NCBI GenBank assembly: GCA_003285105.1
Contig: CP030158.1
Location: 2,864,664-2,896,663, forward strand
DNA length: 32,000 nt
Origin: Roseithermus sacchariphilus
GTDB taxonomy: Bacteria > Bacteroidota > Rhodothermia > Rhodothermales > MEBIC09517
Direction of reading: 5' to 3'
How positions within the stretch are numbered: position 1 is the first letter of the stretch; each line of letters starts with the position of its first letter. A program made the translations under genes and the position numbers. The notes beneath the pieces are model-generated. The model made no database searches. It was not told the DNA's origin and saw only the letters and a program-made list of their open reading frames with translations. Below, in pieces: positions 24,613 to 32,000 of the stretch.

Positions 24613-24642
24613 TTGACATGACTTGATATAACAAGTATCTTG
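24613..24642 (+). promoter_or_regulatory. candidate sigma-70-type promoter with overlapping CTTG/CAAG inverted repeats
   Basis: TTGACA (24613-24618), a 17-nt spacer, then TATCTT (24636-24641), about 48 nt upstream of ATG 24689. The spacer holds the near-palindrome ACTTGATA|TAACAAGT (14/16), followed by CAAG-TAT-CTTG. This is the only AT-rich patch in a 395-bp GC-rich leader. An SD-like GGGAGG sits at 24681-24686. Confidence 0.35.
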
Positions 24643-24688
24643 TCCCGGCGCCGGAAGCGCTTTTGCTCAGCGGCTCAGAAGGGAGGCC

Positions 24689-26368
24689 ATGAACTACGGA
24701 TTCATCATTCGCAACGACCGCTGCATCGGGTGTCATGCGTGCTCGACGGCGTGCAAGAGCGAGAACGAGGTTCCGCTCGGGGTCAACCGGACGTGGGTCA
24801 AGAGCGTCGAGACGGGGTTGTATCCGAACGTGCGTCGGCACTTTCAGGTGACGCGCTGCAACCACTGCGCCAACCCGCCCTGTGCCCGCATCTGCCCCAC
24901 GGGGGCCATGTACCAGCGGGACGACGGCATCGTGGAGTTCGATGCAGAGGCCTGCATCGGATGCAAGGCGTGTCTGCAGGCCTGCCCCTACGATGCCATC
25001 TACGTCGACCCTGCCACCGGGACGGCGGCCAAATGCCATTACTGCGCGCACCGGGTGGACCTGGGCCTGGAGCCGGCCTGCGTGGTCGTCTGCCCCGAGC
25101 ACGCCATCATCGCCGGCGACCTGGACGACCCCACGACGGAGATCAGCCGGATGCTGGCCGAGTTTCAGGTGACGGTCCGCAAGCCGGAGCAGGGGACGGC
25201 GCCCAAGCTCTACTACGTCGACGGCCACGATGCCACGCTGCACCCCACGGCCGTCGAGCGCACCCCGGCGACGTTCGCCTGGGCCGACGTCCTGCCGCTG
25301 CATGGTGGGGACGGGCATGCGGAGGAGGCCGAGCCGCCGGGTGGGGCGGCACCGACGCCGGCCACGCGGAAGAGCAGCAGGAAGGGCGGCGGCGGCGTGG
25401 CGGTGCGCGTGCCGCAGGCGCAGGGGGTGCCGCAGCCGGGGCCGATCATGATTGGCGACGGGCGGATGGCCGAGCAGATGGTGCAGGTGGTCTACAACGC
25501 CCAGCACCGCATTCCGTGGCACTGGCCCGTCCCGGCGTACCTCGTCACGAAAGGCATCGGGACGGGGGTGTTCCTGGTGCTGGCGCTGGGGTTCGGGCTC
25601 GGGATCGTCCCGTTCAGCGGGGTGGCGGCGGTGGCGGGCGGCTTTCTGGCGCTGCTCTTCACGGCCGTGACCACGGCGCTGCTCGTCTACGACCTGGAGC
25701 GCCCCGAGCGCTTCCTGAAGATCCTCCTGCGGCCGCAATGGAAAAGCTGGCTCACCCGCGGGGCCGTCCTGCTCATCGGTTTCAGCACGGTGGCCGGCCT
25801 CTGGTGGCTGATCGAGGCGGGGGCGGTCCTGGGCTGGTGGAGCGGGGGGATGGCGGAGGCGCTGCGGCCGTTCCTGCTGTGGGCCGGGCTGCCGCTGGCG
25901 CTGGGCGCTGCCGTCTACACCGCCTTCCTCTTCGGCCAGGCCGAGGGCCGCGACCTCTGGCAGAGCCCGCTGCTGCCGGTGCACCTGGTGGTGCAGGCCT
26001 TCCTGGCCGGGTCCGCAGCGCTGCTGATCGTCGCCCCGTTCCTGGCCCTGCCGGCGGAGATGAGTACGCTGCTGCACCGGGTGTTCGCCGTCAGCCTGGT
26101 CGCCGACCTGCTGGTGACGCTTCTGGGCGAGTTCGGGATGCCGCACGCCTCCGAGGTTGCGGCGCAGGCGGCGAAGAAGATCACCCACGGACGGTACCGC
26201 CACCACTTCTGGCTCTGGAGCCTGGGGCTGGGCCACGTGGTGCCGCTGGCGCTCGTGGTGGCCGGGCACCCCGCCGCCGTGGCGGCCGCCGGGCTGTTCA
26301 GCCTGGTCGGGCTCTACTTTTACGAATACGCCTTCGTGATGGCGCCTCAGGAGATCCCCAACAGTTGA
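24689..26368 (+). CDS. fusion protein: four-cluster [4Fe-4S] ferredoxin subunit (PsrB/DmsB/NrfC type) + NrfD/PsrC-type 8-TM quinone-interacting membrane anchor
   Basis: Four Cys groups: CIGCHACSTAC, CNHCANPPCARICP, CIGCKACLQACP and CHYCAHRVDLGLEPACVVVCP. A Gly/Pro/Ala/Lys-rich linker follows (about nt 25298-25447). After it I count eight hydrophobic helices by eye. Confidence 0.88.
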   Translation: MNYGFIIRNDRCIGCHACSTACKSENEVPLGVNRTWVKSVETGLYPNVRRHFQVTRCNHCANPPCARICPTGAMYQRDDGIVEFDAEACIGCKACLQACPYDAIYVDPATGTAAKCHYCAHRVDLGLEPACVVVCPEHAIIAGDLDDPTTEISRMLAEFQVTVRKPEQGTAPKLYYVDGHDATLHPTAVERTPATFAWADVLPLHGGDGHAEEAEPPGGAAPTPATRKSSRKGGGGVAVRVPQAQGVPQPGPIMIGDGRMAEQMVQVVYNAQHRIPWHWPVPAYLVTKGIGTGVFLVLALGFGLGIVPFSGVAAVAGGFLALLFTAVTTALLVYDLERPERFLKILLRPQWKSWLTRGAVLLIGFSTVAGLWWLIEAGAVLGWWSGGMAEALRPFLLWAGLPLALGAAVYTAFLFGQAEGRDLWQSPLLPVHLVVQAFLAGSAALLIVAPFLALPAEMSTLLHRVFAVSLVADLLVTLLGEFGMPHASEVAAQAAKKITHGRYRHHFWLWSLGLGHVVPLALVVAGHPAAVAAAGLFSLVGLYFYEYAFVMAPQEIPNS

Positions 26369-26410
26369 CCCCATCGAGGGCAGGCGGTGCGCCCGCCCCT
26401 CCGACGCATC

Positions 26411-30489: not shown

Positions 30490-30529
30490 TCTCATCAGCG
30501 CACCTGAACCCTCGAACGGAGGAGCTACC

Positions 30530-31750
30530 ATGCAAGTCCCAGCTTTCAAAGACCACTACCAGGTCCTCGTCGTCGGCGGGGGAGCCGCCGGCCTGACCGT
30601 CGCCGCCCAGCTGCTCAACCGCGAAGACCCGCCGGAGGTCGCCATCATCGAGCCCTCGGACAAACACTACTACCAGCCCATCTGGACGCTCGTCGGCGGT
30701 GGGGTGGTGCCGCGCGAGGAGTCCGAGCGCGACGAAGCCGACTACATCCCGCCGGGCGCCGTCTGGATCCAGGACGCCGTCACCGCCTTCGACCCGGAGG
30801 CCGGCACGGTGTCCACGCGCGACGGCCGGACGGTCGGCTACGACGTCCTCGTCGTCGCCCCCGGCATCCAGATCGACTGGAACAAGCTGCCCGGGCTGGC
30901 CGAGAACCTCGGCAAGAACGGGGTGTGCAGCAATTACTCGTACGAGCACGTCGAGTACACCTGGAAGACGATGCAGCGGCTCAAGCCGGGCGGGCGGGCG
31001 CTCTTCACGCAGCCGGCCACGCCGATCAAGTGCGGAGGGGCCCCACAGAAGATCATGTACCTCACCGCCGATCACCTGCGCCGTCGCGGCATCCTGAACG
31101 AGGTGGACGTGCAGTTCTTCACGCCCGGCGGCGTCGTCTTCGGCGTGCCCGAGTTCGCCCGGACGCTGGAGAAGGTGATCGAACGCTACGGCATCACCTT
31201 CAACCTGAAGCACGAGCTGATCGAGATCCGCGGTGACGCCCGCGAGGCCGTCTTCCGCGTCACCGACGCCGAGGGCGGAACCGAGGAGAAGGTGCTCTCC
31301 TTCGACATGCTCCACGTGACGCCGCCGCAGAGCGCGCCGGATTTCATCAAGCAGAGCAAGCTGGCCAACGAGGCGGGCTGGGTGGACGTGGACAAGTACA
31401 CGCTCCAGCACACCCGGTATCCCAACGTGTTTGCCCTGGGCGATGCGGCGGGCACCCCGAACGCGAAGACCGGCGCGGCCGTCCGGAAGCAGGCGCCGGT
31501 GGTCGTTCACAACCTCCTGGCCTACCTGCGGGAGCAGGCCATTCCCGATCCGAAGACCTACAACGGCTACGCCTCGTGCCCGCTGGTGACGGGCTACGGC
31601 AAGCTGGTCCTGGCCGAGTTCGACTACGACAACCGCCCCGATCCGTCCTTCCCGTTCGACACGACGCAGGAGCGCTACAGCATGTATGCGCTGAAGCGGT
31701 ACGCCCTGCCGCAGATGTACTGGCACGGCATGCTCCGCGGCCGCGCCTGA
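30530..31750 (+). CDS. sqr: sulfide:quinone oxidoreductase, type II (mitochondrial SQOR-like)
   Basis: FAD motif VLVVGGGAAGLTVA. Redox cysteines lie in PIKCGGAPQKIMYL (codon 31031-31033) and YASCPLVTGYGKLVLAEFDY (codon 31577-31579). The C-terminal FPFDTTQERYSMYALKRYALPQMYWHGMLRG closely parallels the human SQOR tail as I remember it. GGAGGAG lies upstream of ATG 30530. No signal peptide. Confidence 0.88.
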   Translation: MQVPAFKDHYQVLVVGGGAAGLTVAAQLLNREDPPEVAIIEPSDKHYYQPIWTLVGGGVVPREESERDEADYIPPGAVWIQDAVTAFDPEAGTVSTRDGRTVGYDVLVVAPGIQIDWNKLPGLAENLGKNGVCSNYSYEHVEYTWKTMQRLKPGGRALFTQPATPIKCGGAPQKIMYLTADHLRRRGILNEVDVQFFTPGGVVFGVPEFARTLEKVIERYGITFNLKHELIEIRGDAREAVFRVTDAEGGTEEKVLSFDMLHVTPPQSAPDFIKQSKLANEAGWVDVDKYTLQHTRYPNVFALGDAAGTPNAKTGAAVRKQAPVVVHNLLAYLREQAIPDPKTYNGYASCPLVTGYGKLVLAEFDYDNRPDPSFPFDTTQERYSMYALKRYALPQMYWHGMLRGRA

Positions 31751-31785
31751 GGCGCCGCCCCGGGGCGTTGGCCCTGCGTTCCGCC

Positions 31786-32000
31786 ATGCCTGCTCTGGAG
31801 GAAGCCATCGCCCGCAGCCGGGCCTACGACCAGCTGGCCGCGGCGTACCGGCACGGCCTGACCGACGCGCTGCGTCCGGTGCTGGCCGCCGTGCCCGACC
31901 TGGCCGGGGTGCTGCCCGAGCCGTTCGATGCGGACGAGGCGGCCGCCGCGCACTACCGGCTCTTCGGCCGCGACGTCCTCCCCTACGCCAGCGTCTTCCT
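31786..32000 (+). CDS. TorD/NarJ/DmsD-family redox-enzyme maturation chaperone, 3' end cut by window edge
   Basis: Not in the ORF track because there is no stop within the window. ATG 31786 lies 35 nt after the sqr stop. My translation is MPALEEAIARSRAYDQLAAAYRHGLTDALRPVLAAVPDLAGVLPEPFDADEAAAAHYRLFGRDVLPYASVF. High GC3, and HYRLFG...PYASVF resembles the family's E(Y)xxLF...PYxSvy signature. Confidence 0.6.
   Translation, partial: MPALEEAIARSRAYDQLAAAYRHGLTDALRPVLAAVPDLAGVLPEPFDADEAAAAHYRLFGRDVLPYASVF

Follow-up and report, generated by a model that had tools for sequence, protein, structure and literature searches.

The DNA analysed here, called the window in the following, is a stretch of 32,000 nucleotides from Roseithermus sacchariphilus (contig CP030158.1) with a G+C content of about 70%. 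Its last part, positions 24613–32000, carries on the + strand five co-oriented open reading frames (ORFs) separated by 42, 56, 40 and 35 nt (Table 1). They encode an iron-sulfur (FeS) protein fused to an NrfD-type membrane anchor, the catalytic subunit of a molybdoenzyme (Mo subunit), a DUF1641 protein, a sulfide:quinone oxidoreductase (SQR) and the beginning of a TorD-like chaperone. An original prediction, made from the sequence, had described these five genes as one undescribed, quinone-linked sulfur oxidoreductase module. All five ORFs were recovered with exactly the gaps that had been given. Examination of related loci showed that the operon is a composite of two independently conserved units, termed unit A (the FeS-NrfD fusion and the Mo subunit, often with the chaperone) and unit B (the DUF1641 protein and the SQR). 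Both are uncharacterised variants of known enzyme kinds.

Table 1. Position of the operon and of other features in the window.
Feature	Position	Strand	Remarks
Promoter-like site TTGACA-17 nt-TATCTT	24613..24641	+	10/12 consensus matches; consensus match only
FeS-NrfD fusion gene, 559 aa	24689..26368	+	Fer4_11 and NrfD domains
Mo/W-bisPGD (bis-pyranopterin guanine dinucleotide) catalytic subunit gene, 1007 aa	26411..29434	+	Three Pfam domains, FS0 motif
DUF1641 (HMP) family gene, 332 aa	29491..30489	+	PF07849 and three N-terminal repeats
Type II SQR gene, 406 aa	30530..31750	+	Pyr_redox_2; similarity to human SQOR
TorD/NarJ/DmsD-family chaperone gene, 5' part	31786..32000	+	71 aa inside the window; ~325 aa for the full counterpart
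Antisense ORF, 752 aa	24116-26374	-	Fails codon-position test
Antisense ORF, 1027 aa	26426-29509	-	Fails codon-position test
MutL homologue	20139-22199		Low-complexity insert
Two response-regulator-like ORFs and an 805-aa ORF	9249-13239	-	805-aa ORF: possible sensor kinase
tRNA-Arg(CCG)	16069-16146	-	Far 5' of the operon

The promoter-like site coincides with the start of the region delimited in the original prediction (24613) and ends 48 nt 5' of the first start codon. Across the region, 0.2 sites of this kind were expected and two were counted. A palindrome, ACTTG-N6-CAAGT, was seen by eye inside the promoter-like site and was not reported by the inverted-repeat tool. The search for inverted repeats 5' of the operon gave no convincing operator, and terminator-like sites within the operon were not in excess over chance. 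Two long antisense ORFs overlie the operon. They fail the test for a higher G+C content at the third than at the second codon position (GC3>GC2) and are attributed to the high G+C content (70%).

Two independently conserved units

One genome per GTDB species was scanned for relatives of the Mo subunit, and the best 80 of at least 598 loci were examined. Unit A is present in at least 598 species genomes, from about ten bacterial phyla and the haloarchaea. The family is very common, and is therefore uncharacterised rather than rare. In the best 80 loci, the Mo subunits are 56–81% identical to the window protein and belong to Rhodothermales, several classes of Chloroflexota, Myxococcota, Planctomycetota, Acidobacteriota, Gemmatimonadota, Binatia, Actinomycetota, Dormibacterota and Obscuribacterales. 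Plasmid records add unit A in Thermomicrobium roseum, Rhodococcus jostii RHA1 and several haloarchaea. Coding sequence for FeS and then NrfD lies directly 5' of the Mo gene in every sampled locus with upstream DNA.

Only two of the 80 loci, one from Rhodothermales (L005) and one from Caldilineaceae (L006), have DUF1641 and SQR genes 3' of the Mo gene. A third locus (L080) has an SQR gene upstream of unit A, without DUF1641. In 23 loci, the gene immediately 3' of the Mo gene encodes a TorD-like protein (median spacing 76 nt), so that the DUF1641-SQR pair of the window appears as an insert between the Mo gene and the chaperone gene. The pair occupies this position in four related contigs, namely the window, L005, L006 and L097, a Logan contig (SRR10064772) that is 98–99% identical to the first four genes of the operon. 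In ten of ten contexts of DUF1641-repeat genes, the gene directly 3' encodes an SQR (56–99% identical to that of the window); six of these contexts are without the Mo module. As the Mo module is found with neither DUF1641 nor SQR in 77 of the 80 loci, and the pair without the Mo module in these six contexts, each unit must work alone. The five-gene set that had been predicted to form a single module is not conserved across the 80 loci.

The same counts bear on the idea of a five-protein supercomplex, implied by the original prediction, in which a tube formed by the DUF1641 protein would link the SQR to the cytoplasm-facing quinone site of NrfD. Quinol from the SQR would then be consumed, or quinone shared, in a way that bypasses the membrane pool. 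Such a complex would be consistent with the organisation in one operon with gaps of 35–56 nt, with the insertion of the pair between the Mo gene and the chaperone gene in the four contigs, and with the quinone sites of both units being on the cytoplasmic side. It is nevertheless improbable in view of the separate occurrence of the two units.

Architecture, phylogeny and orientation of unit A

The FeS-NrfD protein consists of a four-cluster ferredoxin module (approximately residues 1–190, with 16 Cys), a variable linker (about 191–270) and an NrfD/PsrC-type quinone anchor (270–559). The Pfam matches are Fer4_11 over residues 52–144 and NrfD (PF03916, 87.5 bits) over residues 270–554. The best solved relative is PsrB from the polysulfide reductase of T. 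thermophilus (E 1.9e-54). Among 53 homologues, all 16 cluster Cys are 100% conserved and the length of the linker varies from 44 to 121 residues. The AF2 model of the fusion displays eight transmembrane (TM) helices with pLDDT above 90 in the NrfD half, to which confidence is limited, the FeS domain being poorly modelled. Of the five operon proteins, this is the only one with hydrophobic segments of TM grade. The fusion of the FeS and NrfD subunits, which had been noted from the sequence, is borne out by the presence of both domains in one chain and is shared by 120 of the 120 best homologues.

The Mo subunit matches Molybdop_Fe4S4, Molybdopterin and Molydop_binding, all three above cut-off, and contains the FS0 [4Fe-4S] motif C101-x2-C104-x3-C108-x29-C138. 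Cys228 is the predicted metal ligand, as it aligns with Cys173, the Mo ligand in PsrA; PsrA is also the best solved relative (E 8e-38). In the tree alignment, this column is occupied by a Cys in 19 of 19 members of the core family and by an Asp in P0122, a fused homologue that is more distant. The protein falls below every curated NCBIfam cut-off, the best model being PhsA with 202.7 bits against a cut-off of 694. The start of the gene is ambiguous, with candidate codons GTG 26387, ATG 26411 and ATG 26504, the last being used in the call of the near-identical contig L097. The first 40–65 residues or so are not conserved, and conservation begins around residue 42–66 with the motif YPPxExWDDWVEWD.

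The visible 71 residues of the last gene did not match any Pfam family. The counterpart in L097, a protein of 325 residues with 84% identity over these 71 residues, carries PF02613 (TorD/NarJ), and so does the homologue in L005. The domains and FS0 motif of the Mo subunit, the 16-Cys four-cluster module, the eight-helix haem-free NrfD anchor and the PF02613 counterparts together make up the complete complex-iron-sulfur-molybdoenzyme with chaperone that had been predicted.

A neighbour-joining tree was computed with 48 sequences, 790 columns and 100 bootstraps. In this distance-based tree, the references of which do not include TtrA, ArrA, SreA or the PsrA of Wolinella and Thermus, the Mo subunits of unit A and their nearest relatives form a clade with 100% bootstrap support and a long stem. 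The clade leaves out SoeA, Salmonella PhsA, DmsA, NarG and ten Psr-like representatives that bear a twin-arginine translocation (Tat) signal. A phylogeny of the catalytic subunit had been proposed along with the original prediction, and it thus places the family outside the characterised enzymes among its references. The distance of the Mo subunit to SoeA is 1.9–2.0, compared to 1.84 to PhsA.

Also within the clade are enzymes with separate subunits and a Tat signal (P0123/L105, P0170 and P0149/L088), together with a frameshifted copy from a Sulfurovum plasmid. Given the presence of periplasmic members inside the clade, the fused inward-facing form seems to have emerged in a group to which periplasmic enzymes belong as well. 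The Tat-bearing relatives share with unit A the 100% clade, the B-C-A gene order and the TorD chaperone, and P0123 and P0170 retain part of the N-terminal motif (YPPFE) behind the signal peptide. Their genes are arranged in the order FeS, NrfD, Mo, TorD and polyferredoxin, the last two being specified for L105. They differ from unit A in their separate subunits, in facing the periplasm as judged by the Tat signal, in the extra polyferredoxin gene and in that no sulfur-oxidation neighbourhood was seen. They also seem to be uncharacterised.

Azoarcus KH32C (L082) shares the gene order of these relatives and likewise bears a Tat signal, yet it falls outside the clade. It was considered as a non-fused cytoplasmic relative and rejected, since its Tat signal is classical and it groups with Psr-like proteins. 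Plasmid matches from Phaeobacter and Variovorax were examined as possible SoeA and proved to be unrelated stand-alone Mo enzymes. The plasmid of Sulfurovum mangrovi (L084 7001-10133) carries a Mo homologue with 38% identity that is split by a frameshift and is not annotated in the record. It is flanked by separate genes for NrfD, TorD and a polyferredoxin, in the order seen in the Tat-bearing relatives, and no Tat signal is visible.

None of the five operon proteins has a signal-like N-terminus. The Tat motif [ST]RRxF[LV]K was absent from 76 of 76 homologues of the Mo subunit. With the same motif, the positive controls PhsA, DmsA, Azoarcus, P0149, P0123, P0170 and seven Psr-like representatives were all detected. 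This screen replaced a stricter one, combining RR with a hydrophobicity threshold of 1.8, which missed the known Tat proteins of Azoarcus and P0240. The sole RR matches in the 76 family members belong to a conserved RRY[ML]L[VI]PT segment just before FS0. The loops of the NrfD domain contain on average, over 53 fused proteins, 9.3 Lys and Arg on the FeS side versus 0.6 on the opposite side, and the bias is reversed in the NrfD partner of a Tat-bearing relative. Since the N-terminal FeS domain is devoid of a signal and the charge bias places it inside, the active site of unit A is predicted to face the cytoplasm, with an anchor inverted relative to that of Psr. This prediction, in agreement with the original one, is well supported. 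For SoeC, Calisto and Pereira (2021) have likewise suggested an anchor inverted relative to Psr.

Canonical SoeABC was located on plasmids of Azospirillum (L093) and Paraburkholderia (L092), with genes in the order A-B-C encoding 998, 251 and 321 residues. In Azospirillum, they adjoin xsc, the product of which releases sulfite. The Mo subunit of the window is 26% identical to this xsc-linked SoeA over residues 99–450 only (123 bits), and no significant similarity was detected between the NrfD domain and SoeC, which is annotated as a member of the DmsC/YnfH family. SoeABC as known from A. vinosum, Aquifex aeolicus and Roseobacters resembles unit A in its Mo-bisPGD, four [4Fe-4S] clusters and membrane anchor, the absence of a Tat signal, the orientation towards the cytoplasm with an inverted anchor, the Cys ligand and the link to cytoplasmic pathways that produce sulfite. 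It differs by its place in a separate clade, by its A-B-C gene order, where unit A has BC-A with B and C fused, and by its DmsC/YnfH-type anchor instead of the PF03916 NrfD/PsrC type. The hosts also differ: SoeC is found in Proteobacteria, Aquificae and a few Clostridia (Firmicutes) (Calisto and Pereira 2021), and unit A in Chloroflexota, Rhodothermales, Actinomycetota, Gemmatimonadota, Myxococcota and haloarchaea.

For each of the three modules, PsrABC and PhsABC (2VPW; Salmonella Phs) provide the closest solved or modelled relatives, with the same chain of cofactors, an eight-helix NrfD anchor and a Cys ligand. In contrast to unit A, they are exported by the Tat system, face the periplasm and are built from separate subunits. 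The Mo subunit of unit A is about 250 residues longer and possesses a conserved Tat-less N-terminal extension of about 90 residues, which includes the YPPxExWDDWVEWD motif. That the enzyme is neither Psr, Phs or Ttr nor canonical SoeABC, as previously stated, is supported by the lack of a Tat signal, the missed cut-offs and the partial 26% match to SoeA, TtrA being absent from the references of the tree. A search of the literature returned no description of a fused SoeBC or of the unit A module, in line with the earlier view that it is undescribed. Papers on cable bacteria, Sulfobacillus and Dissulfuribacter were considered as possible descriptions and set aside, as they concern other enzymes.

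Gene neighbourhood and probable function of unit A

The genes that surround unit A were clustered, the identity of the clusters was confirmed with Pfam, and occurrences were counted over the 61 loci of at least 12 kb. The most frequent neighbour is a rhodanese-metallo-beta-lactamase (MBL) fusion with the persulfide dioxygenase-rhodanese architecture found in proteins such as CstB (36 loci). TusA, LbpA-like GcvH proteins and lipoate-protein ligase (LplA) were found in eight loci each, HdrB/C-like proteins of the sHdr system in seven, YeeE/YedE in six, and DsrE and TauE sulfite exporters in five each. At least one of these sulfur genes is present in 43 of the 61 loci, across unrelated phyla and archaea, which speaks for the role in sulfur metabolism that had been suggested.

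The arrangement varies between lineages. On plasmid pRHL3 of Rhodococcus jostii, the genes for DsrE, TusA, FeS-NrfD, the Mo subunit and Mrp follow each other, accompanied by two MBL genes, a thioredoxin and ArsR/SmtB regulators. A CsoR-type 'metal-sensitive' regulator gene is directly 5' of unit A in T. roseum, and genes for a rhodanese and a TauE/SafE sulfite exporter in Natrinema. A contig from Myxococcota associates unit A with a sigma-54 activator, an MBL-rhodanese and two YeeE genes. In a group of loci from Anaerolineae and Thermomicrobia (L019-L025, L048, L052), two LbpA-like genes and one for a lipoate-protein ligase immediately precede the Mo module, and HdrB/C-like genes are located further 5', which ties the module to type II sHdr clusters. 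Past the point where the window ends, contig L097 (12285-19975) contains, after the TorD-like gene and on the opposite strand, two SulP/STAS transporters, a 303-residue protein of unknown kind and a rhodanese-MBL fusion. The SulP and rhodanese-MBL genes may provide sulfate export and a persulfide dioxygenase within the same island.

Some further genes adjoin the Mo gene. In six of the Anaerolineae and Thermomicrobia loci, it is followed by a gene for a DUF2270-DUF2179 membrane protein. A gene for an Mrp/NBP35 (ApbC-like) Fe-S carrier is found after the Mo gene in R. jostii pRHL3 (L081 11988-13157) and in Natrinema (L085 11089-12243), where it replaces or joins the TorD-like gene; mobA also adjoins in Natrinema.

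Regulators of the CsoR/CstR, ArsR/BigR/SqrR and FisR types are known persulfide sensors. Persulfide dioxygenases release sulfite in the cytoplasm. The same is reported in the literature for the sHdr system. As both routes deliver cytoplasmic sulfite, the most economical reading of unit A is a sulfite:quinone oxidoreductase, which would be a functional analogue but no orthologue of SoeABC. From the genomic context, this assignment is given an even chance; the substrate and the direction of electron flow are both inferred. The known pathway of SQR, persulfide dioxygenase and rhodanese (S. aureus cst, Cupriavidus, human SQOR-ETHE1-TST) likewise combines a type II SQR with a rhodanese-MBL protein, and regulators of the persulfide-sensing kind (CsoR/CstR-like, ArsR/BigR-like, sigma-54 FisR-like) occur in relatives of the locus. 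In that pathway, sulfite and thiosulfate are exported or left, or sulfite oxidases of periplasmic or SUOX type are used, whereas the window locus encodes a membrane Mo-bisPGD enzyme.

A working scheme can be proposed, in which two independent sulfur-oxidation units that reduce quinone would share one promoter. The chaperone would load the cofactor into the Tat-less Mo subunit in the cytoplasm. The Mo subunit would then dock onto the four-cluster domain, itself flexibly linked to an NrfD anchor that is upside-down relative to that of Psr. Electrons would pass from Mo to FS0, through the four [4Fe-4S] clusters and on to a quinone site near the cytoplasmic face. Sulfite supplied by persulfide dioxygenase-rhodanese enzymes or by sHdr would be converted according to sulfite + H2O + Q -> sulfate + QH2, where Q stands for quinone, and the sulfate would leave through neighbouring SulP transporters.

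Several points weigh against this scheme. The substrate of a Mo-bisPGD enzyme cannot be given by its sequence. Among characterised enzymes, the nearest ones (Psr, Phs and the Aquifex Sre/Soe enzyme) work as reductases or are able to do so. Several loci have TusA and DsrE within the same operon, which is as compatible with a carrier-bound sulfane substrate as with sulfite. In 18 of the 61 loci, there is no sulfur gene within 10 kb. The separation from other enzymes is that of a distance-based tree with the set of references listed above. A single transcript for all five genes is suggested by their spacing alone.

The kinship with reductases leads to a rival proposal, in which unit A would use quinol to reduce sulfane sulfur, polysulfide, thiosulfate or tetrathionate in the cytoplasm. 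It would resemble an inward-facing Psr, Phs or bacterial Sre and serve to remove excess sulfane sulfur or to respire it. PhsA and PsrA/PsrB are indeed the best NCBIfam and PDB matches, the metal ligand is a Cys as in PsrA, and the wider clade holds Psr-like periplasmic members with a Tat signal. Moreover, according to the literature, the Aquifex enzyme that was initially reported to reduce sulfur groups with SoeA, so that both directions are possible for such enzymes. However, the hosts are mostly aerobic or facultative heterotrophs and the neighbours are oxidative, namely the O2-dependent persulfide dioxygenase, SQR and sHdr. A reductase beside an SQR would create a futile cycle, and the reduction of thiosulfate by quinol is strongly uphill by established thermodynamics. 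A reductase is therefore considered unlikely.

Unit A might instead act on the carrier-bound persulfides TusA-SSH or DsrE-SSH and oxidise them directly as far as sulfonate or sulfite, with transfer of electrons to quinone, as an O2-independent alternative to persulfide dioxygenase and sHdr. This is suggested by co-oriented TusA and DsrE genes that adjoin the FeS-NrfD and Mo genes in R. jostii pRHL3, L006, L013, L062 and L069. The proposal is given a low probability: most loci already have a persulfide dioxygenase or sHdr for that step, TusA and DsrE are found in only 5–8 of the 61 loci, and Mo-bisPGD enzymes acting on a protein persulfide are not known in general.

Lastly, the substrate may contain no sulfur (arsenite or arsenate, selenium oxyanions, formate) or be an organic S- or N-oxide, the sulfur neighbours then being coincidental. 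Public records do label members as 'formate dehydrogenase' or 'anaerobic selenocysteine-containing dehydrogenase', and the loci without sulfur neighbours would be accounted for. These names are generic automatic labels, though, and the models for formate dehydrogenase, ArrA, DmsA and YnfE/F give scores that fall far short of their cut-offs. With sulfur genes recurring in unrelated phyla and in archaea, a coincidence is very improbable, and the oxidation of sulfite with quinone as acceptor is retained as the working assignment of unit A.

The DUF1641-SQR pair and the reach of both units

The SQR of unit B matches human mitochondrial SQOR over residues 8–404 (411 bits, E 8e-122). Both catalytic Cys are aligned, in the segments TPIKCGGAPQK (human Cys201) and YASCPLVTGY (Cys379), and the N-terminal motif VVGGGAAG for binding of flavin adenine dinucleotide is present. 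Its identification as an SQR of the mitochondrial type was therefore correct.

The DUF1641 protein was originally described as a DUF1641 protein with three repeats. Three repeats do exist, but they consist of an N-terminal helical unit of about 68 residues (residues 31–234), whereas the DUF1641 domain itself is single and C-terminal (PF07849, residues 274–308, 41.8 bits for a cut-off of 21). Pairs of repeats have 37/60, 36/66 and 28/61 identical residues (46–62%), with z = 26, 26 and 14 compared to shuffled sequences. The protein has no TM segment. Its best solved relatives are HucM (1e-4), followed by YjlC/Ncp and ForE1. The subfamily with such repeats is small, with 63 clusters containing two, three, four or more repeats. 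Metagenome scans with this protein retrieved no locus with the single sequence and two with an alignment.

SQR and NDH-2 belong to the same flavoprotein superfamily. DUF1641 had been presented as a family known only as a neighbour of oxidoreductases, a view that is outdated. HucM, ForE and the Ndh-coupling protein Ncp/YjlC have been structurally characterised as scaffolds for quinone transport, and form tubes with a hydrophobic interior that are docked to the membrane by the DUF1641 head (Nat Microbiol 2026). ForE is required for the binding of menaquinone and for the formate:menadione activity of ForCE from B. subtilis (JBC 2021). The window protein resembles HucM (Huc), ForE (ForCE) and Ncp/YjlC (Ndh-Ncp filaments of B. 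subtilis) in its C-terminal PF07849 domain with basic and aromatic residues, its all-helical soluble nature and the location of its gene next to that of a quinone-reducing enzyme. The partner of Ncp is, like SQR, a flavoprotein with two dinucleotide-binding domains from the same superfamily. The differences are that the partner in the window is a type II SQR and that the N-terminal part consists of tandem 68-residue repeats. In the Nat Microbiol 2026 paper, SQRs serve as outgroup only and the pairing of SQR with DUF1641 is not mentioned, nor was a mention found in the other DUF1641 literature searched.

By analogy with these systems, the DUF1641 protein is predicted to be a quinone-conducting scaffold for the adjoining SQR, and unit B is probably the SQR counterpart of Ndh-Ncp. 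The SQR would oxidise sulfide to sulfane sulfur. The DUF1641 protein would assemble into an oligomeric hydrophobic tube, with its C-terminal head on the membrane, and carry quinone to the SQR, as do HucM, ForE and Ndh-Ncp. The number of 68-residue repeats would set the length of the tube. Formation of the complex and transport of quinone are thus both extrapolated from the relatives. Two results are unfavourable to this assignment. The AF2 model of the DUF1641 monomer is of low confidence (pLDDT 68) and its comparison to the PDB with Foldseek gave no match, and the related SQR of L080 does without a DUF1641 partner.

Taken jointly, the two assignments would make unit A a second family, not orthologous to SoeABC, of enzymes that face the cytoplasm and transfer electrons from sulfite (or sulfane sulfur) to quinone, and unit B the first SQR with a DUF1641 tube. 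The combination is possible but doubtful. If true, the fused family of unit A would be distributed over hundreds of species, including Chloroflexota, Rhodothermales, Actinomycetota, Gemmatimonadota, Myxococcota, Acidobacteriota and haloarchaea. In organisms without SoeABC, this family would account for the oxidation of sulfite, the step that is missing from their SQR-persulfide dioxygenase and type II sHdr pathways. Unit B would extend the principle of Huc, ForCE and Ndh-Ncp to the oxidation of sulfide and to Gram-negative lineages, with repeats that set the length of the tube.

Sulfite in the cytoplasm is toxic, and it is a product of both the SQR-persulfide dioxygenase and the sHdr routes. 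To our knowledge, the enzyme that removes it outside Proteobacteria and Aquificae is usually unknown. Unit A is a concrete candidate, widespread, generically annotated and located beside persulfide dioxygenase or sHdr genes in many phyla and in haloarchaea. Current marker sets for sulfite oxidation are soeABC, sorAB and aprAB. Because marker sets rely on these genes, confirmation of the assignments would change how the potential for sulfite and sulfide oxidation is read from genomes and metagenomes. The family would also illustrate how a periplasmic enzyme of the Psr type can be turned inward, when the Tat signal is lost and the FeS subunit becomes fused with an NrfD anchor of inverted orientation. 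The DUF1641-SQR pair would broaden the very recent finding that quinone is brought by soluble tubes to enzymes located away from the membrane. Since the number of repeats varies between such pairs, nature itself provides an experiment on the length of the tube. Unit A has cultured hosts, such as Rhodococcus jostii RHA1 (RHA1_RS43840/43835 on pRHL3), Thermomicrobium roseum (TRD_RS12035/12030), Rhodothermus profundi and Natrinema.

The genes 5' of the operon are the housekeeping genes mutL, tilS and hpt, and a regulator was not seen among them. In the MutL homologue, the N- and C-terminal domains are separated by an insert of low complexity, which consists of GTSAGTSAGTSAGS followed by a stretch rich in Pro and Ala. 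Further 5', two response-regulator-like ORFs accompany the 805-residue ORF that may encode a sensor kinase. The Rfam and tRNA scans gave the tRNA-Arg(CCG) gene as sole match. This gene sits in the only stretch of lower G+C content of the window (about 62–64%, 15–17 kb), where the surrounding ORFs have a weak codon-position bias.

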